Positions 22,346-45,542 of a DNA stretch of 64,000 nt are shown here, piece after piece. The position numbers were made by a program, and so were the translations under genes. This DNA is from Escherichia coli (GTDB taxonomy: Bacteria > Pseudomonadota > Gammaproteobacteria > Enterobacterales > Enterobacteriaceae), in NCBI RefSeq assembly GCF_001677475.2, contig NZ_CP015229.1; one strand, written 5' to 3'. Position 1 is the first letter of the stretch. Each line of letters starts with the position of its first letter. The notes beneath the pieces are model-generated. The model worked only from the letters and a program-made list of their open reading frames with translations, made no database searches and had not been told where the DNA came from.

Positions 22346-22466
22346 AAGCTCCTCCCGGATCTAACAAAAATCAAGCAGGAACCTATTCAGATTGTTATTT
22401 CTGTGCATAACGCTTTGTTCTTTAAAATTCGCAGACTCATAAGAACAACGCATTAGAGTAAAAATC

Positions 22467-23027
22467 ATGCTGATCGGCTATGTACGCGTATCAACAAATG
22501 AACAAAACACTGCTTTGCAACGAAATGCCCTTGAAAGCGCAGGATGTGAGCTAATTTTTGAGGATAAGGCGAGCGGCAAAAAGACTGAACGCCCTGGGCT
22601 AAAAAAGGTTTTGCGTATGCTTTCCAGAGGTGACACCCTGGTCGTATGGAAGTTAGATCGTCTTGGGCGCAGCATGCGTCACTTGGTTGTGCTGGTGGAA
22701 GAGCTGCGTGACAGAGGAATTAATTTCCGGAGTCTCACTGACTCTATCGACACCAGTACACCAATGGGGCGTTTTTTCTTTCACGTAATGGGGGCGCTGG
22801 CTGAAATGGAACGCGAGCTTATCGTTGAACGTACACGCGCTGGACTTGATGCAGCTCGCGCAGAAGGTCGAATAGGAGGCCGTCGGCCTAAATACCAAGA
22901 AGAAACATGGCAGCAAATGCGTCGATTGCTGGAGAATGGCATCCCCCGTAAGCAGGTTGCAATCATCTATGATGTTGCTGTTTCCACGCTTTATAAAAAG
23001 TTTCCTGCGTCATCATTTCAATCCTAA
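22467..23027 (+). CDS. cin: Cin/Gin/Hin-family serine DNA invertase, 186 aa
   Basis: Resolvase catalytic N-terminus (GYVRVSTNEQ), C-terminal HTH; sits beside an invertible tail-fibre segment. Confidence 0.95.
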   Translation: MLIGYVRVSTNEQNTALQRNALESAGCELIFEDKASGKKTERPGLKKVLRMLSRGDTLVVWKLDRLGRSMRHLVVLVEELRDRGINFRSLTDSIDTSTPMGRFFFHVMGALAEMERELIVERTRAGLDAARAEGRIGGRRPKYQEETWQQMRRLLENGIPRKQVAIIYDVAVSTLYKKFPASSFQS

Positions 23028-23046
23028 ACCTTGGTTTAAGAGAACT
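23020..23046. other. cix-like recombination site (left)
   Basis: Imperfect palindrome TCCTAAACC-TT-GGTTTAAGA resembling gix/cix crossover sites, at the exact point where Sv-prime homology to S begins. Confidence 0.65.
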
Positions 23047-23074
23047 CGGTACCAGCGGTGAAAAGATCCCCCTG

Positions 23075-24676
23075 TTGAGCACGGCTAACACATGGAGTGC
23101 GCGCCAGACTTTCAACGGCGGGATCACCGGAGCGCTGACAGGGAACGCCGATACCGCAACGAAATTGAAAACAGCCAGAAACATTAATGGCGTCAGGTTC
23201 GATGGTTCTGGTGACATTAATATCAATACTATGGTATCGCGTGGTCGCGTAACGGCTCTGGGGGCGAATGCACAGGGGACATCCGGGATTCAGCTGTATG
23301 AGGCATACAACAATGGCTACCCTTCCCCCTATGGCAATGTGCTTCACCTTAAAGGTGCCACCGCTGCTGGCGAAGGTGAGTTATTCATTGGCTGGAGTGG
23401 CACGAGTGGTGACCATGCGCCCGTACATATCCGTTCGCGGCGGGATACTGATTCTGCTAACTGGTCTGAATGGGCGCAGGTCTATACGTCAAAAGATTCC
23501 GTTCCCGGCGTTAATGCCAAAGGGAATCAGGACACCTCTGGTAATGCGGCTACAGCGACTAAATTGCAGACAGCATGTACTATTAACGGTGTCTCGTTTG
23601 ATGGTTCTAAAAACATTGAGTTAACGGCGGAAGATTTAAATCTACAGGAATTCATTAATAAAGCAAATAATGCCGTTCAGCGTTCAGGCGATATCTTGTC
23701 CGGCGGGCTTACTTTTGAAAATGACTCAATCCTTGCCTGGATTCGAAATACTGACTGGGCAAAGATTGGATTTAAAAATGATGCCGACAGCGATACTGAT
23801 TCATACATGTGGTTTGAAACAGGCGACAACGGAAATGAATATTTCAAATGGAGAAGCCGCCAGAGCACCACAACAAAAGACCTGATGAATCTTAAATGGG
23901 ATGCTTTGTCTGTCCTTGTTAAAGCCCTTTTCAGCAGTGAAGTAAAAATATCGACAGTCAATGCACTGAGGATATTTAATTCATCTTTTGGTGCTATTTT
24001 TCGTCGCTCTGAAGAATGCCTGCATATCATCCCTACACGAGAGAATGAGGGAGAAAATGGTGATATAGGGCCACTACGCCCCTTTACGCTTAATCTCAGA
24101 ACTGGTCGGATAAGCATGGGGCATGGTCTGGATGTTACAGGAGATATAACAACTAACGCCTGGGTGTATGCAAACAGGTTTGCTATTAATAGTGGCTCAA
24201 CCTCATGGATTGATATGCGAAACCAGAATGTCATTTTTGGTAGAAACGCAGTATCAACAAGTTCTGCGCAGGCTTTGTTAAGACAAGACCATGCAGAACG
24301 CAAATTTTTTGTCGGTGGACTTGGTAACTACCAGTTTGGTTTTTACATGATTAATAATTCAAGGACAGCCAATGGCACCGATGGTCAGGCGTACATGGAT
24401 AATAACGGAAACTGGCTTTGCGGTGCGCAAGTTATTCCCGGCAACTATGGCAATTTTGATTCCAGATATGTGAAAGATGTTCGACTTGGTTCACAGCAAT
24501 ATTATGGAGTGAACAACTGGCAAACATGGAATTTCCAGTGCCCGTCAGGTCATGTATTGTCTGGTATTAATGTTCAGGATACAGGGTCCAACTCTGCCGA
24601 TAATATAGCTGGCGTTTATTACAGACCCGTTCAAAAGTATATAAATGGCACCTGGTATAATGTAGCGAGCGTTTAA
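23075..24676 (+). CDS. alternative tail-fibre variable part (Sv-prime), promoterless in this orientation
   Basis: First about 190 aa are about 80 percent identical to the matching region of S; open frame extends upstream to the cix-like site. Confidence 0.75.
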
Positions 24677-24677
24677 T

Positions 24678-25205
24678 ATGATGCACTTAAAGAACATAAA
24701 AGCGGGTAACGCTAAAACACTGGAACAGTATGAGTTAACAAAGAAACACGGAGTTATCTGGCTTTACTCTGAGGACGGAAAAAACTGGTATGAGGAAGTG
24801 AAAAACTTTCAGCCAGACACAATAAAGATTGTTTACGATGCAAATAATATTATTGTCGCCATCACTAAAGATGCCTCCACGCTTAACCCTGAAGGTTTTA
24901 GCGTCGTTGAGGTTCCCGATATAACAGCCAACCGCCGCGCTGATGATTCAGGAAAGTGGATGTTTAAGGATGGAGCTGTAGTTAAACGGATTTATACGGC
25001 AGACGAACAGCAACAACAAGCCGAATCACAAAAGGCCGCATTGCTTTCCGAAGCTGAATCAGTCATTCAGCCGCTGGAACGCGCTGTCAGGCTGAATATG
25101 GCAACAGACGAGGAACGCACACGACTGGAAGCATGGGAACGCTACAGTGTTCTGGTCAGCCGTGTGGATACGGCAAATCCTGAATGGCCACAAAAGCCTG
25201 AATAA
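24678..25205 (+). CDS. alternative tail-fibre assembly chaperone (U-prime)
   Basis: Paralogue of the U protein on the opposite strand (MMHLKNI...NWYEE...[13 protein letters not shown]). Confidence 0.8.
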
Positions 25206-25210
25206 AAATT

Positions 25211-25230
25211 AAGGCCCGCTATCGGGCCTT
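25211..25230. terminator. bidirectional hairpin between convergent U-prime and U
   Basis: AAGGCCCG-CTAT-CGGGCCTT. Confidence 0.55.
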
Positions 25231-25233
25231 GTC

Positions 25234-25767
25234 TCATTCAGGTTGTTCGGGAAATGTTACTGGCAGGCTGGAGGTGTCTGTAGATTCGACTTTCTGCGCA
25301 TAGAGCATCCACTCGGTTAATTTTTGTTTATTCTCGTCGGAAAGGATGCCCAGCCGTAGCTGTGAGTCCCATAGCTGGGTTTTATCCCTGACAAGTTGCA
25401 ACAGGCTTTGCTTTTCATTCTCTGCCTGCTGCCTCTGTTCCTCCTCGGTATAAGTTCGCTTTATCACTACGCCATCTTTGAACATCCATTTACCCGAAAT
25501 ATCAGCCCGGCGATTTGCTGTAATATCAGGAACCTCAACGACGCTTGCGCCTTCTGGATTAATTGCTGAAACATCCTTTTCAATACAAATAATAACGTTG
25601 TTGTGGTCATAGACCATTTTCAACGTATCAGGCTGAAAGTTCTTTTGTTCCTCATACCAGTTTTTCCCATCCTCTGTATAAAGCCATTTGATGTTAAATT
25701 GTTTCGTTAGCTGGTATTGCTCTTTTGTTTTAGGGTTGCCAGCAGTAATATTTTTTAAGTGCATCAT
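25234..25767 (-). CDS. tail-fibre assembly chaperone (U)
   Basis: Downstream of S, paralogous to U-prime. Confidence 0.8.
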
Positions 25768-25769
25768 AA

Positions 25770-28691
25770 TTAAATACTCCCCGCGTTATACCACGTTCCA
25801 TTAATGCAATACTGAATTGGCCTTGCCTGAGTTGTATCAATTAATTCATCACGGTTTCCGTTAACTGAACCCGTAACGACATAACCTGACCTGTCAGACC
25901 AGCCGGGACCATTCCATGTCTGAACAGATGACAGACCGCCAAGGCGAATACCTGTAATAAACCTTGAGTTACATTCTGCCTGCGTATATGCACCAACATC
26001 TCCTGCTGATGGCTTGCGTGTTGTGGTGTAAAATTCTGACCAGTCAGCTTCGAATCCGTAACCATCACGCGCTGAACGATAAAAAATACCACCGTTCCTG
26101 TAATTCACGCGGAACTGTACAGCAGGGCAGCTCCCCGTATTCATATTGAAGTGGAGGATTAATGTCGATGCGCCACCAATGATTGCGTTATAGACCCCGC
26201 TATTCCAGTTCCAGCCAACAGCTTTATCATTTCCGACAGTGCTTCCTGTTTGCCCTAAAGCAAATGCAGGTTGCTGATTTTTCGTGTTGTAGTCACGCCG
26301 CCAGCCTGGCGCATAATCTCCACCGTGGTTTATATAAGTAAATTGTGCATTAGTAGTTCCGCCACCGCTGGAAGTGCTTGGTGTTGTTACACGGATGGTC
26401 ATGGCACCTTTATTACCCATAACCTCAATAACGCAACCTGCAAGATGAATAGTTCCACAGCCAGTATCGGTAATAATTTTATTATTGCCGTATGACCATG
26501 AACATTTGCACATCCAGTATGGGTGATTGAATGCCCCTTGAGAATCCAGCCATTCAATCAATTGTGCTGTTGTCCAGTTACCTGCCCCTGTACTAATAGC
26601 ACTGTGAAAAGCGCGACATGCACCAATATTTTTGGTGAAGGTATCTTTTCCTGGAATATCCGCGCCGTTCTGGTTTTTCTGTAATGCTCCTACGGCTAAT
26701 TCTACGGTTTGCTCAAGATTTAAATCTTCCGCCGTTAGCTCAATGTTTTTAGAACCATCAAACGAGACACCGTTAATAGTACGTGCTGTCTGCAATTTGG
26801 TCGCTGTAGCCGCATTACCAGAGGTGTCCTGATTCCCTTTGGCATTAACGCCGGGAACGGAGTCTTTTGACGTATAGATCTGTGCCCATTCGGACCATGC
26901 CGCAGCAGTGCTATCTCTTTTGGATCGAATGAAAGCAGGTGCATGAGCGCCATTTGTGCCACTCCAGCCAATGAGCAACTCGCCTTCACCAGTTGATGCA
27001 GCTCCCTTCAGGTGAAGTACATTCCCGTAAGTCGTCGGATAACCATTGTTGTATGCCTCATACATCTGCAATCCAGTAGCAGCACCTTGCGTTGTACCGG
27101 TAAGCGCAGTAACGCGTCCTCTAGACGTAATTGTTGGTATCGAAATGTTCGTAGAACCATCGAACCTGACGCCATTAATATTTATGGCTGTTTTTAATTT
27201 CGTCGCGGTGTCGGCGTTCCCTGTCAGCGCCCCGGTGATCCCGCCGTTGAAAGTCTGGCGCGCACTCCATGTGTTAGCCGTACTCAACAGGGGGATCTTT
27301 TCACCGCTGGTACCGAGTTCTCTTAAACCAAGGTATTGGATAACGGCCAGTGTGCTTGTTTTAGCCAGAATATCGCGACCGACTGACGTTAAATCAGTCT
27401 GAGCTACCGTATCCTTACCAGTAAAATAAGGCAGTTTGTTTGCACCAGTCGCAAGGGCCGCGAGAGCGGTTAAAGTTGCATCCAGAGGCTGTTTGCCTGC
27501 CAGCGCATTTGTCATTGTTGTCGCAAAGTTCGGGTCATTGCCAAGTGCTGCGGCAAGCTCATTCAGGGTATCAAGAGCTTCTGGTGATGAACCAACCAGT
27601 GCGGATATGGCAGCTCTTACATAAGCGGTCGTAGCAATCTGCGTATTATTTGTGCCCTGTGCGGCGGTCGGCGCAGTAGGGACACCCGTTAATGCAGGGC
27701 TTGCCAAAGGCGCTTTGAGAGCCAGGGCATTGTTGATAGTTGTGCTGAAATTCGGGTCGTTATTGATCGCAGCCGCTATTTCTTTCAGCGTATCCAGTGT
27801 GCCAGGCGCACCGTTGATAAGTGCAGTTATAGCTGCCTTAACAAAGGCTGTATTTGCGATCTGCGTGCTGTTTGTACCTTGCGCTGCCGTCGGCGCGGTT
27901 GGCGTTCCTGTCAGACTCGGGCTTTCTATTGGCGCTTTGGTATCAGCCAGATCCTTTACAGACTTAACGGCTTTAGGGGTCGCCGCCATTGTTTCGCTGT
28001 CGCTGTTAGTTTCGCTACTGAGCTGAACTAATCCCTTTTGCGTTGTGCTTGCATCCTGCGCCGTATACTTGCTTTTTGCCAGATCGTAGGCTTTTTTAAC
28101 TGCCAGCGAACTTGCAGCAACATCACTTCTACTACTGGTTACAGAGTCTGAAATATCAATGCCGATCGTGCGGTTAATACGCTCGGATGTATCAATCATC
28201 TCCTGGGTAATGGCTGATACGCCAGCAGGGATATTCACCGTACAAACAAGCAGCTCCCCATCTCCTAACTGATATGAATCGGTATAGGTTCTGGCAACAA
28301 ATTCAGCCGCATGAATATGTGACGCGGTATTAACCTGATAGGTATCCTCTCCAAGGAGGTATCTTCCCTTCAGCACAATTGCATATTTCTTGCCTGCACT
28401 AAGTGCAAGAGAAATATCCTTACGGTGCTGAATAGTTACCTGGTAGAATTCACCAATATCCACCGACGCCGCGCCTGCGGTTTTATCACCATCCACTGAG
28501 GTGATTAACAGGTTCATCCCACCGCCAGGCTTAGGTAAGAAACCGGCATAAAATCCCGGGTCAACAATCCCCCTGAATTTTCGGTTTAGCGCGGCTGACA
28601 GATATGGTTCGTGGTATTGCACATCAGCCACCAGAGCCAACGACTCGGGTGATGGGGAAGTAACCGATGTGACAACTGTAACGTCATTCAT
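25770..28691 (-). CDS. tail fibre protein S (constant N-terminal part plus variable part), about 973 aa
   Basis: Track ORF trimmed to the ATG behind an AAGGA RBS; internal tandem Ala/Thr-rich repeats; crosses the right cix-like site. Confidence 0.8.
27316..27343. other. cix-like recombination site (right), inside S
   Basis: TTCTCTTAAACC-AA-GGTATTGGATAAC, inverted relative to the left site. Confidence 0.65.
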
Positions 28692-28702
28692 CAAACATAT
28701 CC

Positions 28703-29137
28703 TTATGCTGTAGTCGTGTTTATGGCCATAACTGCGGTATATGTTTTGCCCACATACAGCGAGTCTTCCTGGACACAAATAATGGCGATTGGCTTGTTCT
28801 CGTTATCCAGAACAACCAGAGTGTTGAATGGGTAGTTTTTCCCTTCCTGCAACTGGCTTTGATCAAGGTCCATTCGGACAGTAATTATCCCGCCTGAGTA
28901 GGTTGGGACGAGGTTGATGGTGCAAAATTGACTGGTCAGTTCTGCCAGATCGAAAGCCTTTGGCAGTTCTCCAATCTCATAAGTGCCATCTCCTTTCTTA
29001 GTAACCAGTGAACTGGTACCGAAAACGGCCTTGCTGATTAAAAATCGAGAGCCTTTGTTAATGGACGATTCAGCGCGCCGCTGATAGTAATAGTCCAACA
29101 ACTGACTCTTATAGAGGTTTGTTGAGACGTCAGACAT
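28703..29137 (-). CDS. tail fibre-associated protein (P1 R position)
   Basis: Track ORF immediately upstream of S. Confidence 0.45.
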   Translation of the reverse strand: MSDVSTNLYKSQLLDYYYQRRAESSINKGSRFLISKAVFGTSSLVTKKGDGTYEIGELPKAFDLAELTSQFCTINLVPTYSGGIITVRMDLDQSQLQEGKNYPFNTLVVLDNENKPIAIICVQEDSLYVGKTYTAVMAINTTTA

Positions 29138-29215
29138 GATTTTCCCTAATCAATGTTGTGAAGCCTCATTGTAAGAGAAGTAACTTGTCACCCCGCCCTG
29201 CGGACGGGGTGATTG

Positions 29216-30055
29216 TCAGGCGTCGCTATCCAGCAACAAATCATCTGCGCGTGTGCGATCAAACGTAGGTGTCGCTTTCACAATAGTGCCACCCGGCGTT
29301 GCGGTGATAGGGGCGCTAATCGACGTAACTCCAGTAAGCGAAGTTGTATCCGAAGTTTCAAACCAGCAGAATGCTTTTTCGGTATCAGAAATCTCGTTCA
29401 AGGTGATCATGTCGGCCTGTTCATTTACAACAACCGACAAATAGAGCGTAAGCCCATCAAACACTATATGCAGTGGCAGTAGAGGCTTTACGAACTGATT
29501 AAACTTTCTGAGAATTTCTTCTGTAATTGCTGACTGATCTATCGTGCCAGTAATACCCATTGTCCGGGCCAGGTCGTTTATGGGAATACTGATCATCCCT
29601 CTGGAAGTCAGAAACATCTCGCCGAATGTGCCGCCGGTAGTCTCCAGTGTGCTTTCTGGTATTAGAACTGTGCCATAGGGATGACGCTCAAGGTCCACCG
29701 GTGCATATATCGGATCCCATAAAACAGAAATACCGTTAAATTCGCGGTAAATTGTCTGGTTTATAGGGCGTTCAGTTCCCTTAAAGTGAATCTCATCAAG
29801 ACGCTGTTGTAACAACATCGGAACGGAAGATGAGTTCGACGTTCTGATAGTAAAGAACTGGCCAAGTTCATTTGTCCTGGTCTCCAGATCCTCCTTGCTC
29901 ATGGAAAAAATAGACTTCCGGTTGGTAATTCGCTCCAACCATGGGTCAACAAAGGTATCCATCATTAACTGAACCAAATCAGCCAATGATTTATAGAGCA
30001 ATGACTTTTGCTTAGCTGATGTAAGCCGGTTATTAAACCAGGAACGCTGCATCAC
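29216..30055 (-). CDS. baseplate protein (P1 gene 16 position)
   Basis: Synteny only. Confidence 0.45.
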   Translation of the reverse strand: MMQRSWFNNRLTSAKQKSLLYKSLADLVQLMMDTFVDPWLERITNRKSIFSMSKEDLETRTNELGQFFTIRTSNSSSVPMLLQQRLDEIHFKGTERPINQTIYREFNGISVLWDPIYAPVDLERHPYGTVLIPESTLETTGGTFGEMFLTSRGMISIPINDLARTMGITGTIDQSAITEEILRKFNQFVKPLLPLHIVFDGLTLYLSVVVNEQADMITLNEISDTEKAFCWFETSDTTSLTGVTSISAPITATPGGTIVKATPTFDRTRADDLLLDSDA

Positions 30056-31485
30056 TCCTCCTCATACGAAATATTAAAGGTGGAGTTTTCTGTATCCAGA
30101 TAAACGAAATCGTAAAAGCCGTTGGACTCATTCCACTCGACAAATTCCAGATAAAAGTCGCGGAAATAACCCAGCGTTTCGATAAATGCCCAAACGTCTT
30201 TTTTCTTAATCAGGATGTACTTGCCGACACGGTTCGGATCAAAGAAAGTTGAGTCACGCCCAAATTTTGTTTCCAGTGCCGACTTCAGCTCATCGGTCAC
30301 GTTCTCAATGGTCAGGCTTGCCGATATCCGCCCGGTGATGGTGATCTTAAAGGGTAGTTTTCTGACCTCTTTATACGAGAATTTCTTGTTCAACTCATTC
30401 GGCACCTTCTTAAAGGCAGCCAGGATCATTTCTTCAAGCTCTGACTGGCTTTTGTTTGGATGCCATCCTGAAATAAATATCCTATTGATATTCCGAATAT
30501 TATAAGCACCATCTAATTTCTCTTGCTGGCCTTCGCCCCATGCCTTTACCCAGGACAGTCCCGGGATGTTACGCACCAGAAAATACGTATAGTCCCCGCC
30601 CCATACGACCTGATCATCATAGGCAAGGTAATATTGTGCACGGTTACGTGTGATCTCCGTTGTTTCAGCATCGGTACCTGCGGTTATAGGTGTCGTTGTC
30701 TTAACTGAAATCAAATTAGCTAAATTAGCCGCAGAATCGACAGGCGTCAGGTTTTGGCCAGCAACCAGGGTTATATCGCCGTTGGTGCACCATACCTTAA
30801 GCGTAATTGTCGAGCCTTCTGGCGGTATTTGCCCAATTAGCCCATCGCCGAATCGAACCCCCAACTGCTCGGATGGTTTATAAAACTCAACGTAGACCTG
30901 GCTTTTACTACCGGCTAACCGGAACATAGTGCTGGAAGACCACTGCGTGGTCTTACCATCGGTCGTCACGAATACTTCCAGCTTATAGCAGACAGCAGTG
31001 AGAGCCTTTGATAACACGACTTCCAGAAATTCTTTGGCTGCCGTAACGGTATATGTCACCTCCTGGATTTCCAACTGTGCCACTTCTACCGTACCGGTGC
31101 CGTCAACCAATCTGCATACATCCATAGTCATGTAAGGGTACTGGTCGTCAGATATTAAAGGCATGTTTTTGGGGATTACCGCTGGAGCATCTTCACTTGT
31201 GGCTGTGATCTCAATCATCCCCGATGACGGTGTTGGCTTGGTACCAACATAACTGTTCGTTTCTGCCGCAGCCAGGATAGAGGAACGCCGCGTCGCAGTC
31301 GATATAAAGCCTTCAGCCAGCGCAGCATCGGCATATTGAAAACACCTGTATACAATCTGGGTAATAAACAATGTCAGCATCGAGACAAATTGAGAGCCGA
31401 CAAACTTCGACCAGAATGAATCTTTCTCGACAAGCTCTTCAAACTCTGCACGAATACTGTCTTTAGTCGGTGTTGTTTTACTCAT
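30052..31485 (-). CDS. baseplate wedge protein (BplA-like)
   Basis: 477 aa, overlapping starts with neighbours; synteny. Confidence 0.5.
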   Translation of the reverse strand: MSKTTPTKDSIRAEFEELVEKDSFWSKFVGSQFVSMLTLFITQIVYRCFQYADAALAEGFISTATRRSSILAAAETNSYVGTKPTPSSGMIEITATSEDAPAVIPKNMPLISDDQYPYMTMDVCRLVDGTGTVEVAQLEIQEVTYTVTAAKEFLEVVLSKALTAVCYKLEVFVTTDGKTTQWSSSTMFRLAGSKSQVYVEFYKPSEQLGVRFGDGLIGQIPPEGSTITLKVWCTNGDITLVAGQNLTPVDSAANLANLISVKTTTPITAGTDAETTEITRNRAQYYLAYDDQVVWGGDYTYFLVRNIPGLSWVKAWGEGQQEKLDGAYNIRNINRIFISGWHPNKSQSELEEMILAAFKKVPNELNKKFSYKEVRKLPFKITITGRISASLTIENVTDELKSALETKFGRDSTFFDPNRVGKYILIKKKDVWAFIETLGYFRDFYLEFVEWNESNGFYDFVYLDTENSTFNISYEEE

Positions 31486-31841
31486 AGCACCACGTCCTGT
31501 GTGATAGTTATATCCCTGATACGAATGGATATTTTCAACTTATCAAAAGCATCTCCCTCGGCTACTGACAAGCCAGAAATCGGTATGTCGGGTAAATCTA
31601 CCGTCAGTTTTTGCAAAAGCATTGCCTCAACCGCAATTTGAACATACGACAAGTTGGTCGGTTCGTGTTTAAACTGCGGTAAAACATTGCCCCATGACGG
31701 ATCTCCGTATACCTCACCCTGATAAGTGTTTAGCCACTCATATAAACGAGCGCCCCAGGCCTCCTCCTGGGACTCATACGTTTTTACGCCGGATAACTCC
31801 AGCGTCAGTAAAGGATCAATTTCGTTATTGTTGGCCATCAA
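31482..31841 (-). CDS. small baseplate protein (PmgA / gp25-like position)
   Basis: Synteny and size. Confidence 0.45.
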   Translation of the reverse strand: MMANNNEIDPLLTLELSGVKTYESQEEAWGARLYEWLNTYQGEVYGDPSWGNVLPQFKHEPTNLSYVQIAVEAMLLQKLTVDLPDIPISGLSVAEGDAFDKLKISIRIRDITITQDVVL

Positions 31842-34800
31842 TCAACTCTCGCGTAGTCATTCATCAACGGATCATCAATTGACAGTGGCACCGTGCGCAT
31901 AACGCCCGGTTGAGGCGTGCTGACCTTTACGACAGTTCCCTGGCCTTTCGCCGAGTCTTTGGTGTGCTCTTCAATCCTGGCAAGCAATGAGGTCATCTGC
32001 GCAAACAGCCGCTTCGTTTCACCATCAAGTGAAACGGTATTATCAGCCAACTGCATTGTCGGCTTAGCACCGGAACCGCCAAGGTCACTAATAACCTGCC
32101 CGTCTATCTGCATACGACCGGTTGGTTGCTGCAAATCGTTGGCGGCAGTCGTCACCTGGGACGTGGAGGCTGGTTGAGGAGAATTATTTGAGCGCATTCC
32201 CCGGGCATTAATGAGTTTGTCATACAGCCCATCAATCCCCATTTGTGCACCGAGTTGGTCAAAGTAACTTGAGTTGTTTGCTACCGGACGTGCCTCTTCA
32301 ACTGGCATAGGTGTATCAACATACACATTGCCAGCTGCCGTTGCGGTTCCCCTTCCTCGTGCACGTTCTTCGAGGGTTCCCTGAACGACTTCCCGACGCA
32401 TCCCCCGGCCATTCATGAATTTGTTGACCAGATCGTTAACGCCAACAGCATTGCCGATTTTGTCTACCAGACCGCCTTTCTCAAACGGGCTATCACCAGG
32501 GGTAAACGCCAGGCCAGTAGACTGATCGATAACAGCGTTATCAGGCAGTGGTCCCCTCACTCCATATTGCGCCCCACCCTGTGCTCCTGCTCCAGGTGTA
32601 TAGATTTCACCACCCAAATAGCGAGCACGATGAGTATTGACCTTGATCGCGTACTCACGGTTTTCTTTCGATAAGTCACCTGTGCCTTTTTTCCACTTAT
32701 TGATAGTGCCAAACCCAGCGTTATATGCAGTGATGGCCTCGTTTAAGTCTCCATTGGCTTGCTTCAGATACTTGCTCATGAGAAGAGCCGCAGCTTCTGC
32801 CGATTTCACAGGATCAAATGCATCCGGTTCCGATATCCCTGTCTCTTTACGAGCAATACTCGTGAACTGGAACATCCCGAGTGCGCCACCACTTAACTTT
32901 CCATCTGGTGATCTTGTAAGCGGAGACTTTGCGTTAGGATCCCCTCCTGATTCAGTTGCAGCAATCGCGTAAAGAGTGCCTTCTGGAAGACCATATTTAT
33001 TCTCTAGTTCAGCAAAATATGGAGCCAACTTATCGAGATTTGCCTTACCTTCAGCGCCAAGACTTCCTACTTTTACATCCAAGTTGCCATTGTTGTAGGT
33101 ATCCGCAGCTTTCTGAATATCATTCCTGGTTCCAGTAGTATTACGCGACGATGATGACGAGCTATTTTGACCAATGGCTTTATCAATTTTCTGCAACGCG
33201 CGATTGCCCGTTTCTACGGCATTTGCATTGATAATCTGATTAGCAGTTTCTTTAACTGTTTTATTGCTATCTTTCGCCGTATCTAAGGATGCATTTACAA
33301 CACGAGTGACAATATTAGCCTTTTTAGGGGTATATTCAGTCTTAGGAGCATTGCCCTCCTGACGTTCTTTAGCAGGTGTTTTTAATTCAGGTGTAACCTC
33401 TTTCGCATCCGCTTTATTGACTAGCTTTGATGCAACCCAGGCCACAGGGGTGCTCTGAACAGCGGCATCAGCAACCTCACCTGAAAGCTCTTTTGCGGCA
33501 CTCCATAGATTACTGCCAGCCTCTTTAATGTATTTCCCCGGGTTCTTAATGAAATCAATTGCACTATCAATTGCATCACTGAAAACCTTTTTCAGGTTAT
33601 CGACAGTAAAGAAGTCTTTGATGGCGTCTAATTTTTCGTTCAGACTCTTGGTTGTGTCACTGAACCAAGCTGAAATAGCATCGCCAATCTTGGCTGTGTA
33701 ATCGTTGAATGTTGTGGATATGGTGTCACCAAGGTTAGAAATGTATGTTTCTAAATTGGTAATCCCACTATCAATGGCCTGTGCAATACTTTCCGTCGAA
33801 AATGATTGCAACATATTGCCGATATCCTCAAATCCAAGTGATTTGAGAACGCCACCAATGGCACTGCTAATACCAGATACCAGTCCTCCCATATCGAGAA
33901 CGTTAGCCAGTGTATAAGCCGCTTTTTGCTGAAAAGATGGATCTTCCCCATCCTTAAGCCCAAAGGTCCGACGTTGTGCTTCTGTATCATTCCAACCGGT
34001 TACCGCATCATAGATACCTCCAGCCACCGTGCCGACTAGCGGAATTGCGCGTAAAACCCCCTTTGCAAGTGCCTTAACACCTAGTTTCCCCAATCCCTTA
34101 GTTGCAAGTTTTCCGGCACCGCGAGTAGCCAATTCGCCAGCTTCTTTGGCAGCAGCTTTTTTCCCACCAAAGCCCAATAAGCTTGCAACTTTTTTTATAC
34201 CTAAAGCGCCTAGTGCCATCGAGCCAACTTTCTTTAGTGCCCCACGGCCAAAAATGAGGGAAGCAATACCACCGGCCCCCTTCCCTAACAGGCTAAATAA
34301 TTTGGACAGCAAGCCGCCCTTCTTTTTCCCGGTGTTTTTGGCTATCTGATCAAGGGCGCTGAGAATCTTGTCATTGCCCTCTTTAATTTCGCTGGTCTGA
34401 TCCTGAAGTTCCTGAACCGTCCGTTTTTGGGTGTTAACCTGAACGACATCGGCACTACTTTGCGATTTACGCCTAAAAAAACCTTTTTTACGGCTGTTAT
34501 CGTCATTGCCACGAATCACATCGGCAATAGACTTTCTGGCACCATTAAGCGATCCGCCAACTTCTTTTGATATCCCGCCAAGCTCCTTCCCTGCGGCCCA
34601 CAATGGACCAGCAACGGCATAACCTAACGCATCGACGGCACGAGTCTCTGAAGGGTTACCTATGCCTTCAGCTACTTTTGACAGTTTTTTTAATAAACCT
34701 GATTCAGCATTTAGACGCTCATCATCCTCTTTTCGCCTGGCCTTTTCTGCTCGTTCAGCATGGGCATCTTCCGCTGCGGCCTTACTCCCTGACTTTCCAA

Positions 34801-35266
34801 TAAAACGACCACGCGCATCGCGTTGGTTTTGGCTTTTTTGCGCACCGCCTTTTTGACCGAACATTTCGCGAGCGTGTTCGGCTGCTTCGGTCCGTTGCGC
34901 CTTTACATCCTCTGGTATAGCCTTCCTGCGTCGTTTTTTACCCTTTGGTGTGGTTGATTTGGCCCGCTGTTCCTGTTGAGCAACATCTTCCTGAACTACA
35001 CGAGAAACGTCCCCTAAATTAAGCCGTTTCATTGCGTCAACAATAGGGTCTACTGATGGCGCTTTGGCCACAAAGTCAGGCCGGGAATTTTCGATTGTGC
35101 GATTTAATGCCGACACGCTGCGAGAGACAGGATCAACAGTAGCAACTCGCCCACCTTTCAAATCTTCAACAGCTTCCCGGATACCAGCAAGCTCTTCCAG
35201 CTCTTTTGCGCTGGCGGTTTCAACTGTCCTTATAACATCGTCAATGTTGGCGTTTTTTCTTTCCAT
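31838..35266 (-). CDS. sit: tail tape-measure-like injection protein with lytic transglycosylase domain (Sit-like), 1142 aa
   Basis: SLT-like motif (TESGGDPNAKS ... GALGMFQFTS); size matches P1 Sit. Confidence 0.8.
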   Translation of the reverse strand: MERKNANIDDVIRTVETASAKELEELAGIREAVEDLKGGRVATVDPVSRSVSALNRTIENSRPDFVAKAPSVDPIVDAMKRLNLGDVSRVVQEDVAQQEQRAKSTTPKGKKRRRKAIPEDVKAQRTEAAEHAREMFGQKGGAQKSQNQRDARGRFIGKSGSKAAAEDAHAERAEKARRKEDDERLNAESGLLKKLSKVAEGIGNPSETRAVDALGYAVAGPLWAAGKELGGISKEVGGSLNGARKSIADVIRGNDDNSRKKGFFRRKSQSSADVVQVNTQKRTVQELQDQTSEIKEGNDKILSALDQIAKNTGKKKGGLLSKLFSLLGKGAGGIASLIFGRGALKKVGSMALGALGIKKVASLLGFGGKKAAAKEAGELATRGAGKLATKGLGKLGVKALAKGVLRAIPLVGTVAGGIYDAVTGWNDTEAQRRTFGLKDGEDPSFQQKAAYTLANVLDMGGLVSGISSAIGGVLKSLGFEDIGNMLQSFSTESIAQAIDSGITNLETYISNLGDTISTTFNDYTAKIGDAISAWFSDTTKSLNEKLDAIKDFFTVDNLKKVFSDAIDSAIDFIKNPGKYIKEAGSNLWSAAKELSGEVADAAVQSTPVAWVASKLVNKADAKEVTPELKTPAKERQEGNAPKTEYTPKKANIVTRVVNASLDTAKDSNKTVKETANQIINANAVETGNRALQKIDKAIGQNSSSSSSRNTTGTRNDIQKAADTYNNGNLDVKVGSLGAEGKANLDKLAPYFAELENKYGLPEGTLYAIAATESGGDPNAKSPLTRSPDGKLSGGALGMFQFTSIARKETGISEPDAFDPVKSAEAAALLMSKYLKQANGDLNEAITAYNAGFGTINKWKKGTGDLSKENREYAIKVNTHRARYLGGEIYTPGAGAQGGAQYGVRGPLPDNAVIDQSTGLAFTPGDSPFEKGGLVDKIGNAVGVNDLVNKFMNGRGMRREVVQGTLEERARGRGTATAAGNVYVDTPMPVEEARPVANNSSYFDQLGAQMGIDGLYDKLINARGMRSNNSPQPASTSQVTTAANDLQQPTGRMQIDGQVISDLGGSGAKPTMQLADNTVSLDGETKRLFAQMTSLLARIEEHTKDSAKGQGTVVKVSTPQPGVMRTVPLSIDDPLMNDYARVD

Positions 35267-35347
35267 GATCTTATCGCCTACCGTTTCGGTTTAAGTTTTT
35301 CTTCCAGTTTCTCCAACAGGAAAAACGCATAGGATTCAGTGAGCCTT

Positions 35348-36229
35348 TCAGCGTCCTGAATCGGTATACCCCCATACAAAACCAGGTTGGACACTAAGGT
35401 CTGATAGCTTTTCAATCCCCACCTGTGGAATGAAGTCGGTAGCCCGAAAGGGCACCCACAGACGGGTATATGCACCCTCTGTGGACTCCTTTTTATCCTG
35501 ATTTGGGCATTTATGCGGCGGGAGACGAAGACGCATTTCACCTTTATCGATGTAGCACGGTAAACCATGTTCGAGCTTTTCATGAGCCAGTCGGATGTGT
35601 GCCGCCAGCTTCATAAATTCAGTATCAATGGCCATCCGTTTAATCGTTTCATAACGACGCTCAGCCTGATCTTCACGAGTACCGCTAACATCGTTATAAA
35701 GCTCACACTGATAAGCGAATTCCCAAAAACGCAAATCAACGATCGCTTCTTTGAATTCCGCGTCGTCTTCAGGTGGCAATGCTGCACGGCGCATCTCCAG
35801 CATTTCCATTGCCCAACCATCAAGCGGCACGATACGCCATTGATAAGGTACTCCCTCTACAGACACCTCAATATCGTCAATGAAAGGTTCCACTTCCAGG
35901 ACCTGGATATCTTCAGCCAGAGCATTCATATCACAATCGTAATAATGCTCTTTACCACAATGTTTACAGGTGTAGGTGAATGTCTCGACCGGTGTTTCAC
36001 GGGAGCCGGTAAATATCCACCATAACGCGGTAATCCGGTCCTGCGCCGTCCATGTCAGGGGATCATGTTTCGCGGGTTCAGCCAGCAAGGCTTTTAAATA
36101 CGCCGTTGTCTGTTGTTCTTGTTCCTCCGGTGTTATCGAGTTGAAACGCATCGCATCAGCAATATTTGGCTGACGGAACTGGATCAATTCAGTTGGCCGC
36201 GATGGTAGCGGGAAAAGAGGTAAAAGCAT
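35348..36229 (-). CDS. tail morphogenesis protein (PmgB-like position), contains CxxC pair
   Basis: Synteny only. Confidence 0.4.
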   Translation of the reverse strand: MLLPLFPLPSRPTELIQFRQPNIADAMRFNSITPEEQEQQTTAYLKALLAEPAKHDPLTWTAQDRITALWWIFTGSRETPVETFTYTCKHCGKEHYYDCDMNALAEDIQVLEVEPFIDDIEVSVEGVPYQWRIVPLDGWAMEMLEMRRAALPPEDDAEFKEAIVDLRFWEFAYQCELYNDVSGTREDQAERRYETIKRMAIDTEFMKLAAHIRLAHEKLEHGLPCYIDKGEMRLRLPPHKCPNQDKKESTEGAYTRLWVPFRATDFIPQVGIEKLSDLSVQPGFVWGYTDSGR

Positions 36230-36243
36230 CCTTGCTCCTTAAT

Positions 36244-36855
36244 TCAAAGAGAAAAGCTAAAGCCCAGAAGGGAAGCCAAAGAACTTGAGGATTGGTTAAA
36301 CGTGCTGTGCAATGCGAAGGTCATTGGGAATGACTTAAATTCAGTAACCTGATCTCGCGCATAGGTGACATCGCCGGTAGTGACCGGGAATACCGTCATC
36401 TCATTTTCCAGTTTGGTTAAACCGGAAGACAGTAACCGATAAATACGCACATTGAGCAAATATTTAGACGGTATATTCCCAGTACCGTCCGGATTAATCA
36501 CCCGACTTTTTGCCGTCTTAAACCAGTCCAAAACGAGGCCATCAACGGTATCCCTGACCATCATTGTTATCTGCCCAGGCGAACGCTCCGTTGGCTGAAG
36601 GATATTCCCTCCGCCGATTTTAATCGTTTCATATTCGATGCTGTAATCGTGGTAGGTAATGTCTTTGGCAAAGAAGTCTGCCCCCTCCAGTCCATCAACT
36701 TCGACAGAGAACTGCCATCCTTGCGCGAACAGCATTTTGTTCATGATGATTGACGTCAGCTTACCAACTTCCCGCTCACCAACGCCGGAGCCAAATAATG
36801 TCGTCGTTAATGCCGAAGATACATAAGACTTTACTGATGCAACATTAAGTCCCAT
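36244..36855 (-). CDS. putative tail tube protein (Tub-like position)
   Basis: Synteny and size. Confidence 0.4.
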   Translation of the reverse strand: MGLNVASVKSYVSSALTTTLFGSGVGEREVGKLTSIIMNKMLFAQGWQFSVEVDGLEGADFFAKDITYHDYSIEYETIKIGGGNILQPTERSPGQITMMVRDTVDGLVLDWFKTAKSRVINPDGTGNIPSKYLLNVRIYRLLSSGLTKLENEMTVFPVTTGDVTYARDQVTEFKSFPMTFALHSTFNQSSSSLASLLGFSFSL

Positions 36856-36865
36856 ATCAACGACC

Positions 36866-37310
<445 letters not shown>

Positions 37311-37400: not shown

Positions 37401-37916
37401 TCAACCTGCCTTTGCTTTTACGCTGTGTGAGAGAATACTTGCTTCAATTTCTTCCAAAATCTCTCTGACTTGCTCGTCGGACATATCAACCAACATCAAT
37501 GCAGCCAGGCGTTTACGACCCTCTAGTTGCAGCAGTTCTTGAGTATCTTTGTCCAATAAGCGTAGTACCGTTTCAACGCCTTTCCTTGCGAACATGCTGG
37601 TAAGAGCCTCTCGTTCTTCACTAGTAAGAAACGAGAGCATCTCAGTTAGCTGATCGCCTTGACTTAAACTGCTTTGTGATTCTTGTATTTTTGGTGGGTT
37701 TCCGTTGCCTGTTTTTAACCATTCAAGACTAACACCTTCACTTTCTGCAATGCGTACCAATATGCTTTCTCGAGGTTCTGGTGTGTTTCCCTTTTTAAAA
37801 TAGCTTTGTAACGTATTGATATTTATTCCCCAGGCTCTGGCTGCAGCACTTCTTGATGGATACCGTCTAATAAGATATGCCATGCGCTCTACGATAGGTT
37901 CTTTTGCTTGCTCCAT
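37401..37916 (-). CDS. Mu-like prophage repressor (c-like), N-terminal HTH
   Basis: Leftward gene divergent from ner/A/B; HTH-like segment RSAAARAWGININTLQSY. Confidence 0.6.
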   Translation of the reverse strand: MEQAKEPIVERMAYLIRRYPSRSAAARAWGININTLQSYFKKGNTPEPRESILVRIAESEGVSLEWLKTGNGNPPKIQESQSSLSQGDQLTEMLSFLTSEEREALTSMFARKGVETVLRLLDKDTQELLQLEGRKRLAALMLVDMSDEQVREILEEIEASILSHSVKAKAG

Positions 37917-38107: not shown

Positions 38108-38359
38108 ATGAGACAAAGAGAAGATCGCGACCGCGATTGGCCTTCGCTAAAGATTCAGCTGGCGCTCAAAGATAATGGGTGGTCTTCCTTCCGGGAGCTT
38201 TCACTCCATGCTGGTTATGCTCAGGATTCACTGAAAGCGGTAGTTCGTACACCGAACAAAAAATACGAACGCGTAATTTCTGACGCTATAGGTGTACCGC
38301 CAGAAATCATCTGGCCCAGCCGGTATCGTAACGATGGATTTATCAGGAAGGCGTCGTGA
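38108..38359 (+). CDS. ner: Ner-like DNA-binding protein
   Basis: Pattern DW...L...SL.ALS...GY...L......P...E.II...L...PE.IWPSRY matches Mu Ner/Nlp. Confidence 0.8.
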   Translation: MRQREDRDRDWPSLKIQLALKDNGWSSFRELSLHAGYAQDSLKAVVRTPNKKYERVISDAIGVPPEIIWPSRYRNDGFIRKAS

Positions 38360-38360
38360 T

Positions 38361-40457
38361 ATGCAGTTGTACGTTACCGCAAACGACTTGCTCGGCGTAC
38401 CAGGAATGCCAGTCACTGCAAAAGGTATCCGTCAGGCGTTACAGCGTTTTGCCCATGGGCGCAATGACGTTAGCCGCCGACGTGAAGGCACAAAAGCCAT
38501 TGAATACCACATCGATTGCCTGCCAGAGGTAACTCAAAGGGCACTGCGTGAACGCTATGTGGAACAGCTGGTGGCTACAGAGAACAATGTTTCTGAAGTG
38601 AAGGTTGTTACCAGGAAGGCTCGTAATCCTGATGCAGTCCAGGCAATCGAAGCATATCGCGGTTCTCCACAACTGATGGAAGAACGCCTGAACGCGTTGA
38701 CCGAAAACCAGCGCCGGGTATCTGAAGCAAGATCTGCGCTGGTGGTGGAAGTGCTGAGGCTGGAAAGAGACGGTGATCTCGGGCGACTGAAAGCCATTAA
38801 CTTTCTTGTCGAAAAAGCCCGTAAAGGTGAACTACCGGAACGCCTGCAACAGGCCGCAGTTAACGCCAATGCAAAACGTGGTGCTAATCGCACCATCAGT
38901 CGTGACCCACTTTATCAGTGGGTGCTGAAGTACAACCAGTCACAGAACGCCGCAGAACGGCTGCTGTTACTGGCACCAGGAAAACGCGACGAAATAAAAC
39001 CGGAGGAAATTAGCTGGCTACCTGAATTTCTGGCGCAGTATCGCCAGGCGAATGGCAGACCTATGTCAGAAGCCTACGAAGATTTTGTCGCGGAATGGCA
39101 GCGTCGCCATGCAGACGAACCCTACATGATAGAGGTGATGCCCTCTTACGATGTGGTTCGTTATGCCATGAAGAAATTGCCGGAAGTGGTGAAACAAAAA
39201 GGCCGTGTTACCGGCAGTGAATACCGTCAGCTTGAAGGATTCACCCGCCGCGACTGGACAGCTATGCCGGTGAATTATGTCTGGATTGGTGACGGTCACG
39301 GTATGAAGCTGAAATGTGCGCATCCGATCCACGGGCGTCCATTCTCACCAGAAGTCACGTTTGTGATCGACGGTGGAACCCGGTTTGTTGTTGGCTGGAG
39401 TCTTGATCTTGCCGAGAACGTTTTCGCCGTTGCCGGAGCGATACAGCACGGCATTCGCAACCACGGAAAACCGTTCCTGTATTACTCGGATAACGGTTCT
39501 GGTGAAACGGCTGACATGCTTGACAAAGAGGTCGTGGGTATTCTGCCCCGCCTGGGGATTAAACACCCAACAGGTATTGCCGGTAATCCACAGGGGCGCG
39601 GCATTATTGAACGCCTGAACCGGACACTGCCGATGCGTATAGCCAGGAGGTATCGCACCTATTTTGGCAAGGGTGCTGACCGGGAATCGTTGCGTGTACT
39701 TAACCGTGATCTGCGTTCAGCGTTTAACGCCCTGCAACAGGACAAGCCTCTGAACGACCGCCAGAAAGCTGCAATGCGCGAGCTACCATCGTGGGCGGAG
39801 CTTATTGAGGCTATTCGTGAAGGCGTGGAATGGTACAACAACCGCCCGCATTCTGAGCTGCCTATGAAACCGAACGGGCGGCATTACAGCCCGGCAGAGT
39901 TCAGAAAAAAACGCCTGGCAGAAGAAGACACCGAAATTGAGTGGCTGAGTGATCTTGAGCTGCGCGACATGTTCCGCCCGATGGTGGAGCGTCCGGTAAA
40001 ACGCTGTGAAATCAAATGGCTTGGCAATATTTATTACGCGCCGGAGCTGCGTGACGAACACGGTCGCAAAGTGCTTATCAGTTATGACATTCATGACGCC
40101 GAGCGAATTACGGTACGTCGCAAGGACGGCAGCTTTATCTGTGAGGCGATATGGAACGGCAATAAACGCGCAGCCTTCCCTGTCAGTGCGGAATATCACA
40201 AACAACAGCAGCGTATTAAAGGGATGCGCAAACGCGCTGAGGAAAAAATTCGCGATGCTGAAGATGAAGGTATTCAGATTCTGGAACACAAACAGGCTGA
40301 ACCCTGGCTGGATAATGTTTATCGCCCGGTTGGTAATGTGGTGGCCGTTCAGCAACCGGAATATGAAGAAGAGCATGACGAAGAATTTGAACGCGATTTC
40401 AGACTGGGGATGCAAAAACTTTTTGCCATGCAGGAAGAAGATGATCCGCTGGCCTGA
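38361..40457 (+). CDS. Mu-type DDE transposase A
   Basis: Track ORF 38292-40457 trimmed to the ATG; N-terminus parallels Mu A (PG.P.T..G......KGGKAIEY); about 700 aa. Confidence 0.85.
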   Translation: MQLYVTANDLLGVPGMPVTAKGIRQALQRFAHGRNDVSRRREGTKAIEYHIDCLPEVTQRALRERYVEQLVATENNVSEVKVVTRKARNPDAVQAIEAYRGSPQLMEERLNALTENQRRVSEARSALVVEVLRLERDGDLGRLKAINFLVEKARKGELPERLQQAAVNANAKRGANRTISRDPLYQWVLKYNQSQNAAERLLLLAPGKRDEIKPEEISWLPEFLAQYRQANGRPMSEAYEDFVAEWQRRHADEPYMIEVMPSYDVVRYAMKKLPEVVKQKGRVTGSEYRQLEGFTRRDWTAMPVNYVWIGDGHGMKLKCAHPIHGRPFSPEVTFVIDGGTRFVVGWSLDLAENVFAVAGAIQHGIRNHGKPFLYYSDNGSGETADMLDKEVVGILPRLGIKHPTGIAGNPQGRGIIERLNRTLPMRIARRYRTYFGKGADRESLRVLNRDLRSAFNALQQDKPLNDRQKAAMRELPSWAELIEAIREGVEWYNNRPHSELPMKPNGRHYSPAEFRKKRLAEEDTEIEWLSDLELRDMFRPMVERPVKRCEIKWLGNIYYAPELRDEHGRKVLISYDIHDAERITVRRKDGSFICEAIWNGNKRAAFPVSAEYHKQQQRIKGMRKRAEEKIRDAEDEGIQILEHKQAEPWLDNVYRPVGNVVAVQQPEYEEEHDEEFERDFRLGMQKLFAMQEEDDPLA

Positions 40458-40532: not shown

Positions 40533-41486
40533 ATGACTGATATTGATGATGTTTTCAACACTATTAATACGTTGATCAACGAGGGCGACAAGCCCCAGGA
40601 AGATATTGCTGATGAGGCCGGAATGTCTCCGGCAACACTCTCGGCTCTGCGTAAAGGAGAATACAAAGGCAATGTCGAAGGTATGCATGACAAATTACAG
40701 GAATGGTATCGGGTCTGGCAAAAAGGGCAGAATTTGTCAGGTGCCCCCGGCGTTGTGAAGACCCAGACATTTTGTGATTTGCATGAGCTGTTTAAAACAG
40801 TGCGCTCACTCGGGATTATCAGTGTTGTTGTTGGCGTACCGGGTGTCGGCAAAACTTTTGCTGCACGGGAATATTGCCGCAAGACAGCTAATGCCTGGAT
40901 GGTGACGCTTGCACCGGCACATTCGAGCGTAACGGAATGCCTCCTTGAAATAGCATATGCGCTGGAAATTAATAATCCGGGAAGAAATAAGGGGAATATA
41001 ACCCGCGCCATTCGCAGAAAACTGGGCGGTGGTAAAGAAACCAGTGGCCGTGTTAACCCCCTGCTGATTATTGATGAAGCTGATCACTTAAGTGTGGATG
41101 GTCTGGAGCAATTACGCGCCATTCAGGATGCTACTGGCGTGGGGATGGTTTTAATTGGCAACCCGAAACAGATGGCGGATGCCACCCGTCGTGGGACTGA
41201 TGAACTGGCTCGTTTGTTCAGCCGTTTTGCCATGACAAAACAACTGCGCAAAGTGAAAAAGACTGATGTGATGGCTGTAGCCAAAGCATGGGGAGTAACA
41301 CAGGAAGATGAGCTGGATCTGCTGATGAGGGTTGCCGAAAAGCCCGGGGGATTGCGTGTATTAACTCACACACTGAATCATGCGTGGCTGGCGGCGAAAG
41401 GTGCTGGTTCATCCCTGAATAAAAGTCACATAAAAGCGGCTTTTAAGGAGGCTTACAGCAACCCTAAGTTGCTGAACTGGCAGTAA
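40533..41486 (+). CDS. Mu B-type AAA+ target-DNA activator
   Basis: Walker A GVPGVGKT, Walker B LLIIDEADHL; directly after transposase. Confidence 0.85.
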   Translation: MTDIDDVFNTINTLINEGDKPQEDIADEAGMSPATLSALRKGEYKGNVEGMHDKLQEWYRVWQKGQNLSGAPGVVKTQTFCDLHELFKTVRSLGIISVVVGVPGVGKTFAAREYCRKTANAWMVTLAPAHSSVTECLLEIAYALEINNPGRNKGNITRAIRRKLGGGKETSGRVNPLLIIDEADHLSVDGLEQLRAIQDATGVGMVLIGNPKQMADATRRGTDELARLFSRFAMTKQLRKVKKTDVMAVAKAWGVTQEDELDLLMRVAEKPGGLRVLTHTLNHAWLAAKGAGSSLNKSHIKAAFKEAYSNPKLLNWQ

Positions 41487-45013: not shown

Positions 45014-45542
45014 ATTAATTCATGTTGCCCGTCGGGAGTTGCAACTCGACGATGACACTTACCGCGCCTTTCTGGTGCAGTGCACAGGCAAGACCAGTTG
45101 CCGCGAGCTGACCTTCGCACAACTGGAACTGGTGCTCGATGCCATGAAAGAGCGCGGTTTTAAGAAGCAGAAAAAACATCCCCGCCGTCGCTTTAAGGGG
45201 CATGTCACACCACGCGAGAAGATTTACAAAATCTGGCAGCAGATGTTTCTTGATGGTTTCGTCTCCGATATCAGCGACGCCGCGCTGGACAAATACGTTG
45301 AACGCCTGACGGCCAGACGTAATGGCGGTCAGGGTGTTTCCACGCTGGTCTGGTGTCACGGGGAATCGTTGCAGGTTGTGCTCGAAACGCTCAAGCAGTG
45401 GCACATGCGCTGCATCCGGGAAGCCTTTGCCCGACATGGTGTGCCGTTACCTGCAAGCCCATCCGGGCGGGAACTACGCGGATATGATGCACTGACCAGT
45501 GCATATGCCCGCGCACGAAACAGCGGGAGAATTGCTGTATGA
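44991..45542 (+). CDS. GemA-like regulatory protein (DUF1018-like)
   Basis: Position immediately before the Mor/C-like gene; size. Confidence 0.5.
   Translation: MSRTSLIKLIHVARRELQLDDDTYRAFLVQCTGKTSCRELTFAQLELVLDAMKERGFKKQKKHPRRRFKGHVTPREKIYKIWQQMFLDGFVSDISDAALDKYVERLTARRNGGQGVSTLVWCHGESLQVVLETLKQWHMRCIREAFARHGVPLPASPSGRELRGYDALTSAYARARNSGRIAV

Follow-up and report, generated by a model that had tools for sequence, protein, structure and literature searches.

A predicted Cin-type tail-fibre inversion switch with mosaic repeat arms in a P1-like phage-plasmid sequence from Escherichia coli

Genes and sites of the locus

The subject of this report is a 6.4-kb tail-fibre locus (positions 22400-28800) within a 64,000-nucleotide stretch of Escherichia coli contig NZ_CP015229.1 (assembly GCF_001677475.2), referred to here as the window and numbered from its first nucleotide. 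Both sides of the locus are closely related to known phages: positions 1-22400, to its left, are about 98% identical to P1-like phages, and positions 29001-37152, to its right, are about 96-97% identical to P1, SJ46 and phi456, the homology ending at 37152. On sequence grounds the window is best described as a P1-like phage-plasmid (Punavirus), and the locus, an invertase gene beside an invertible segment that encodes two alternative fibre tips, sits in a Punavirus-type late tail-fibre operon (LPs, R, S, U) with R and LPs conserved and with flanks at 97-98%.

The cin gene (22467-23027, plus strand) encodes a serine DNA invertase of 186 amino acids, its 3' end overlapping the left crossover site. 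The Pfam Resolvase (E 3.8e-51) and HTH_7 (E 2.4e-18) domains are both intact and the catalytic serine lies within an intact YVRVSTNEQ motif; the product is a small serine recombinase with an N-terminal resolvase domain, catalytic serine and C-terminal helix-turn-helix. It is 99% identical to the Cin proteins of P1 and P7, with two residues differing from the former and one from the latter. Alignment to the P1 and P7 annotations places a recombinational enhancer of the sis type, Fis-dependent in P1, in the 5' part of cin at 22485-22556 (no strand assigned); it agrees with P1 at 69 of 72 nt and with P7 at 72 of 72, and enhancer function with Fis dependence would be expected here on the strength of that agreement. 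The stretch just upstream of cin (22400-22466) is identical to P7 and clearly unlike P1.

The crossover sites are 26 bp each. cixL (23019-23044, plus strand) reads CAATCCTAAACC-TT-GGTTTAAGAGAA, contains the cin stop codon and is identical in alignment to the cixL annotated in the P1 and P7 records, while cixR (27318-27343, minus strand) lies inside S, reads TTATCCAATACC-TT-GGTTTAAGAGAA on the minus strand and is identical to P1 cixR. Read into the segment, both have the central TT, and they stand in inverted orientation. Additional cix-like sites were sought across the 64-kb window and none beyond cixL and cixR was found, 0 being expected by chance; a multiple-inversion system of the Min kind was rejected on this count of two sites.

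The invertible C-segment (23031-27331, no strand assigned) measures 4301 bp from the central dinucleotide of cixL to that of cixR. P1 records match query positions 622-4942, exactly the cix-to-cix span, on the strand opposite to the query, and the P1 annotation has cin, S and R ordered and oriented as they are here. Within it lie two convergent cassettes. On the plus strand, a silent variable fibre part of the P1 Sv class (23033-24676; 547 codons), to be expressed only after inversion, is followed by a U-type tail fibre assembly chaperone gene (24678-25205; 175 amino acids; Caudo_TAP, E 8.7e-38) of the same length as that for P1 gpU (528 bp). On the minus strand, the currently expressed variable part of the P1 Sv' class (25770-27329; 519 codons and stop) is in frame with Sc, the constant part of the fibre protein S, and is followed by a U'-type chaperone gene (25234-25767; 177 amino acids; Caudo_TAP, E 1e-36) which has the P1 gpU' length (534 bp) and is now co-oriented with S. 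When 23031-27331 was reverse-complemented in silico, both junctions remained unchanged and S went from 973 to 1001 amino acids without stops, so that the constant part outside the segment joins either variable part in frame and both orientations appear productive.

Most of these parts had been anticipated in the original prediction, made from the sequence alone: an invertase gene, now located just to the left of the start given there; inverted cix-like sites around a 4.3-kb segment, which prove identical to those of P1; and two alternative variable parts, each with its own chaperone, borne out by the two convergent cassettes, the two Caudo_TAP genes and the in-frame fusion both ways.

Between the convergent chaperone genes, at 25211-25230 (no strand assigned), lies a G+C-rich hairpin that is followed on the minus strand by AATTTTTATT; it is a match to consensus only and looks like the terminator of the current R-S-U' transcript. 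The T-run is found on the minus strand only, and therefore termination behind the chaperone may be efficient in the present orientation and weaker once the segment is inverted.

Both orientations among relatives

Among PLSDB records covering at least 80% of the locus, 34 are matched by the locus as sequenced and 36 by its in silico inverted form; related plasmids carry either orientation about equally. The clearest case is a pair of Escherichia fergusonii plasmids, NZ_AP028829 and NZ_AP028849, each of 122,823 bp, which differ at 2266 positions over 8.3 kb as they stand and show 0 mismatches over the same 8.3 kb after the 4280-bp cix-bounded segment of one is flipped. In the Salmonella plasmid pSA20094620.3 the diverged repeat arms are the pair seen in the window (80% identical to each other, and matching the corresponding window arms at 97-98%), with the segment in the opposite orientation. 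A switch held in one orientation by a mutated invertase is not what is seen: Cin is intact, and the relatives are found in both orientations.

Three further PLSDB plasmids, NZ_CP016549.1, NZ_CP099870.1 and NZ_CP099904.1, each contain two whole cin/C-segment loci, one in each orientation, pointing to dimers or duplications of P1-like elements in which the two switches flipped independently of each other.

The inverted-repeat arms

The ends of the segment form inverted repeats of 0.63 kb, a left (cin-side) arm at 23033-23650 on the plus strand and a right (Sc-side) arm at 26709-27329 on the minus strand. Global alignment over about 650 nt gives 81% identity, ungapped extension finds 360 nt at 83% and 239 nt at 87%, and at the protein level 175 of 218 residues (80%) agree; the junction regions of about 190 amino acids at about 80% identity that had been predicted were thus essentially right. 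The differences are very unevenly spread. The outer and the inner 180 nt or so of the arms are 87-100% identical, while identity drops to about 60% in a central block of about 270 nt, where indels also occur. A six-way alignment groups the cin-side arm with both P1 arms and the Sc-side arm with the Sc-side arm of P7, each being a close match throughout the alignment; about 300 nt of the P1 allele carried here have no counterpart in the cin-side arm of P7.

Because the divergence is confined to a block and each arm fits a known allele, the arms are best read as a recombinational mosaic of two pre-existing alleles in which a core of about 270 nt has been replaced, rather than as the product of drift. 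The earlier claim that the repeats have diverged accordingly stands as regards the low identity (81% in DNA, 80% in amino acids) but not as regards divergence as such, which gives way to a mosaic of P1 and P7 alleles. Nor is the mosaic a new property, the P7 genome record already holding the P7-type arm. Near-identical repeats of some 620 bp, taken strictly after P1, are found neither here (about 81%, against 98% over 636 nt in P1) nor in P7 (87-88%); since P7 also falls short, near-perfect repeats are a property of P1 and not of the family. The divergence is irrelevant to Cin, which needs the cix sites only, the repeats lying inside them, and it should not be taken as decay, the same mosaic being found in P7 and in other plasmids. 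A similar mixture of types extends beyond the segment: the sequence upstream of cin matches P7 and not P1, so the cin promoter region is of the P7 type and one repeat arm of the P1 type.

Each arm also contains an internal direct repeat, two copies of 78 nt about 400 nt apart with roughly 71-72% identity (23141-23218 and 23540-23617 in the left arm, 26742-26819 and 27144-27221 in the right), which encode the motif GNA(D/A)TATKL(K/Q)TA-x-(N/T)INGV-x-FDGS. The approximately 300 nt missing from the P7 cin-side arm fall between the two copies of this motif, and for that reason a deletion by recombination between the direct repeats is suggested as the origin of the P7 gap.

The fibre tips

The expressed variable part shares 90% identity with P1 Sv', and S as a whole 94% with P7 gpS; a weak gp37_C match to the variable part falls just below the Pfam cut-off. 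Judged by these relationships, the sequenced state, Sc with an Sv'-type part and a U'-type chaperone, is C(-) in P1 nomenclature, in keeping with the opposite-strand match of the P1 reference records over exactly the cix-to-cix span. P1 S' requires O-antigen (bioRxiv 10.1101/2022.07.24.501295), and by analogy the C(-)-like state seen here is expected to target strains bearing O-antigen and not those with rough, K-12-type lipopolysaccharide.

The silent part is more composite. It is 76% identical to P1 Sv overall, though about 97% over the first 300 amino acids, and 87% identical to the cin-side part of P7, from which its last 60 or so amino acids differ; its last 124 amino acids are 96% identical to the fibre of Shigella phage SfMu and to a P2-like fibre, and only 63-67% to P1, P7 and Mu. 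The silent fibre is a chimera: its arm is of the P1 type, its shaft of the P7 type and its tip, of about 60 amino acids, of the SfMu/P2 type. None of the phage records examined showed this three-way P1/P7/SfMu combination as such. One suggestion, put forward tentatively and thought rather improbable, is that this chimeric fibre with its U-type chaperone confers a receptor specificity, perhaps for O-antigen, unlike that of P1 S and of P7, the repeat region serving as an exchangeable module. In the present element, receptor specificities are predictions.

The constant part, R and the late promoter

Sc, the constant N-terminal part of tail fibre protein S, occupies 27332-28691 on the minus strand (about 453 amino acids); the right-hand end that had been given for the switch, 28691, is the ATG of S. 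Internal tandem repeats rich in alanine and threonine had also been predicted in S, and they are found in Sc at 27495-27938 (minus strand) as two adjacent units of 74 amino acids, 27495-27716 and 27717-27938, identical at 51 of 74 residues and at 139 of 222 nt. Alanine and threonine together make up 38% of this stretch as against 24% of the whole protein. The units correspond to the repeated elements b1 and b2 of P1, whose record annotates elements a0, a1, b1 and b2, and two Phage_fiber_2 repeats lie just upstream of them. Tandem Repeats Finder, run on 22400-28800, detected nothing in the DNA; with a DNA identity of only 63%, the Sc repeats escape that program and are visible at the protein level alone.

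Upstream of S in the same late operon is R, a tail fibre structure or assembly gene (28703-29137, minus strand) named after the P7 and P1 annotation of the matching region, and beyond it the late promoter LPs (29167-29186, minus strand), with its -22 box and -10, which drives R-S-U. Aligned to the annotated LPs of P7, it has identical -10 and -22 boxes and one mismatch in the spacer.

Setting of the locus and a nested Mu-like prophage

Over the locus as a whole, RCS47 and P7 come closest among phages (about 94.5% identity across 92% of the locus), and no record in the phage, plasmid and E. coli collections exceeds about 95.6% identity; in the central unique 3 kb, DNA identity to the Mu, D108 and SfMu G segments reaches 89-90%. 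A slice of the locus without a close relative was sought, and each 200-nt slice proved at least 87% identical to one of four fetched loci, these per-slice values being approximate since high-scoring pairs in the repeats were handled roughly by the script. With a relative at that level for every slice, the locus is a patchwork of already known sequence.

To the right, the P1 homology breaks off at the 37152/37153 junction inside pmgC, of which the C-terminal 94 codons remain (36866-37150, identical to P1). From 37153 to 64000, where it runs off the window, the sequence is that of a Mu-like transposable prophage encoding MuA (38292-40457), MuB (40533-41486), Mor (45539-45988) and a Mu-type portal (51261-52832) as well as a terminase, a tape measure protein and a DNA circularisation protein; its best nucleotide identity in PLSDB is merely 72-85%. 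The putative left end of the element (37153-37300) begins with TG and has three copies of ATTCAAGATA(A) at about 37170, 37241 and 37291, which resemble MuA end-binding sites. A leftward, divergent open reading frame at 37401-37916 (minus strand; 171 amino acids; no Pfam match) occupies the position of a Mu c-type repressor. The insertion also leaves the late promoter LPsit cut off from the tail genes. In P1, pmgC is an essential gene (PMC10695390), and because the Mu-like prophage interrupts it and separates LPsit from the tail genes, the P1-like prophage is probably defective. The nested prophage in pmgC is more unusual than the switch, and a separate matter.

Interpretation and rival explanations

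The locus is, with high confidence, a Cin/C-segment inversion switch of a P1/P7-like phage-plasmid. Its anatomy, its conservation, the in-frame fusions and the occurrence of both orientations in relatives can be observed directly, and Cin activity with Fis dependence would be expected in the present element by analogy. In the mechanism envisaged, Cin, a serine recombinase of the Hin/Gin/Cin/Pin group, would bind the two inverted 26-bp cix sites and, assisted by the Fis-bound enhancer inside cin, would cut at the central TT dinucleotide, so that the 4.3-kb segment rotates by 180 degrees. LPs and Sc would stay fixed, each orientation joining Sc in frame to the other variable part with the matching chaperone co-transcribed; the fibre made after inversion would have 1001 amino acids in place of the present 973, with the chimeric P1/P7/SfMu-type tip and the U-type chaperone. 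The 81% identity of the arms would reflect modular exchange of the core of about 270 nt, with the P1 allele in one arm and the P7 allele in the other. This mechanism is inferred from near-identity to the experimentally characterised system of P1, in which Cin-mediated inversion is established according to the papers that cite the work (Iida et al. 1982, cited in PMC6906374 and bioRxiv 10.1101/2022.07.24.501295). The original prediction of a host-range switch of the P1 C-segment or Mu G-segment type is in keeping with all this: Cin, cix and enhancer are conserved, the fibres are in frame both ways, and both orientations occur in relatives.

Some observations weigh against this interpretation or narrow what it can say. 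The single assembled sequence displays one orientation, and activity in the present element would be expected from its relatives. In the relatives with the opposite orientation, the E. fergusonii pair and the Salmonella plasmid, the crossover could not be pinned to the cix core: the arms of the E. fergusonii pair are identical over about 445 nt, and the outer 176 nt or so of the Salmonella arms are homogenised, with differing allele breakpoints. With the outermost parts of the arms identical or homogenised, a crossover at cix and a homologous exchange within the repeats are inseparable there. Inversion might then proceed mainly by RecA-dependent homologous recombination between the 0.63-kb repeats and not by Cin at cix, as the high identity (87-100%) of the outer and inner 180 nt or so of the arms would permit, and as the allele breakpoints within the first 180 nt or so, which vary among relatives, would favour by indicating that exchange or gene conversion does occur in the arms. 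It is nevertheless a very unlikely account of the locus: an intact Cin is conserved together with the enhancer and with cix sites of canonical sequence, the diverged core would be a barrier to branch migration, the outer half-sites always remain with their flanks, and in P1 it is Cin that inverts the segment, as reported of Iida et al. 1982 in the citing papers. Still less credible is a frozen, decaying switch whose arms have drifted apart by point mutation. The arms are indeed just 81% identical where those of P1 reach 98%, but the divergence sits in one block of about 270 nt between near-identical ends, each arm fits an existing allele (P1 on the cin side, P7 on the Sc side) and is matched at 97-98% in the Salmonella plasmid, open reading frames are kept in both arms, and a relative with the same arm pair occurs in the other orientation. 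Gradual drift of the repeats was rejected on the match to known alleles and the confinement of the differences to a block, and is effectively refuted.

A weightier objection concerns the consequence of the switch and not its identity. With a Mu-like prophage in pmgC, the switch may have no consequence for virions in the present element; it could be intact yet a passenger in a crippled prophage, the DNA perhaps flipping while no infectious P1-like virions are made and the host range is unaffected. This is judged somewhat improbable. P1 homology does stop at 37152 within pmgC, leaving just the 94 C-terminal codons identical to P1; MuA, MuB, Mor and a Mu-type portal are encoded from 37153 on, and the ATTCAAGATA repeats resemble the ends bound by transposase; pmgC was found essential in P1 both in a CRISPR interference (CRISPRi) screen and in earlier genetics (PMC10695390); and the insert, in splitting pmgC, parts LPsit from the tub/pmgB/sit tail operon. 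Set against this, all parts of the switch are intact and apparently under purifying selection (Cin at 99%, full open reading frames in both fibres), the insertion could be recent, essentiality calls by CRISPRi can be polar, and the structure is half seen, the rest of pmgC and the other Mu-like end lying beyond the window.

The Cin/C-segment switch, then, looks intact, and it permits confident annotation of the cix sites, the enhancer, Sc, both variable parts, U and U'. It is a known system, having been characterised since the early 1980s and annotated in P1 and P7 records that match the locus at 90-95%, and its importance beyond annotation is little.

Comparison with known systems

P1 (AF234172, AF234173, NC_005856) has the same order of elements, lydC, cin, cixL, [Sv'/U' and U/Sv], cixR, Sc, R and 16, and the likeness extends to Cin (99%), the identical cixL and cixR, the enhancer (69/72), the segment of about 4.3 kb, the b1 and b2 elements of Sc and an expressed tip 90% identical to Sv'. 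It differs in its repeats, 636 nt at 98% in P1 as against about 81% here, where the core of about 270 nt is replaced on the Sc-side arm. The segment is opposite in orientation to that of the P1 reference records, the Sv-class tip departs from P1 Sv over roughly its distal 250 amino acids (76% identity overall), and the region upstream of cin is of the P7 type. P7 (AF503408) and RCS47 (FO818745) are closer over the locus as a whole (about 94.5% across 92%) and have the segment the same way round; P7 shares the Sc-side arm allele, a gpS at 94%, and an identical enhancer and cin upstream region, and its arms are also diverged (87-88%). Unlike the present locus, P7 is without about 300 nt of the cin-side arm, its silent tip differs in the last 60 or so amino acids, and its U is annotated as split into Ua and Ub, whereas both chaperone genes are intact here.

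The Gin-gix G-segment of Mu and SfMu resembles the C-segment in pairing a constant part with either of two variable parts and in using an invertase from the same group, and the resemblance reaches 89-90% in DNA over about 3 kb with the tips and U/U', and 96% to SfMu in the last 124 amino acids of the silent tip. In Mu, the inverted repeats of the G segment are short, at 34 bp, and gin is placed on its other side; the present locus differs in having 0.63-kb repeats internal to the cix sites and a constant part, Sc, of the P1 type. Gin can act on cix sites. More distant are the multiple-inversion system Min of p15B, mentioned in connection with P1-like elements (PMC6906374), and the plasmid shufflons, which likewise vary the tip of a tail fibre or pilus by site-specific inversion beside a recombinase gene. 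Those systems have many crossover sites and several segments, whereas the locus described here has two cix sites and two states.

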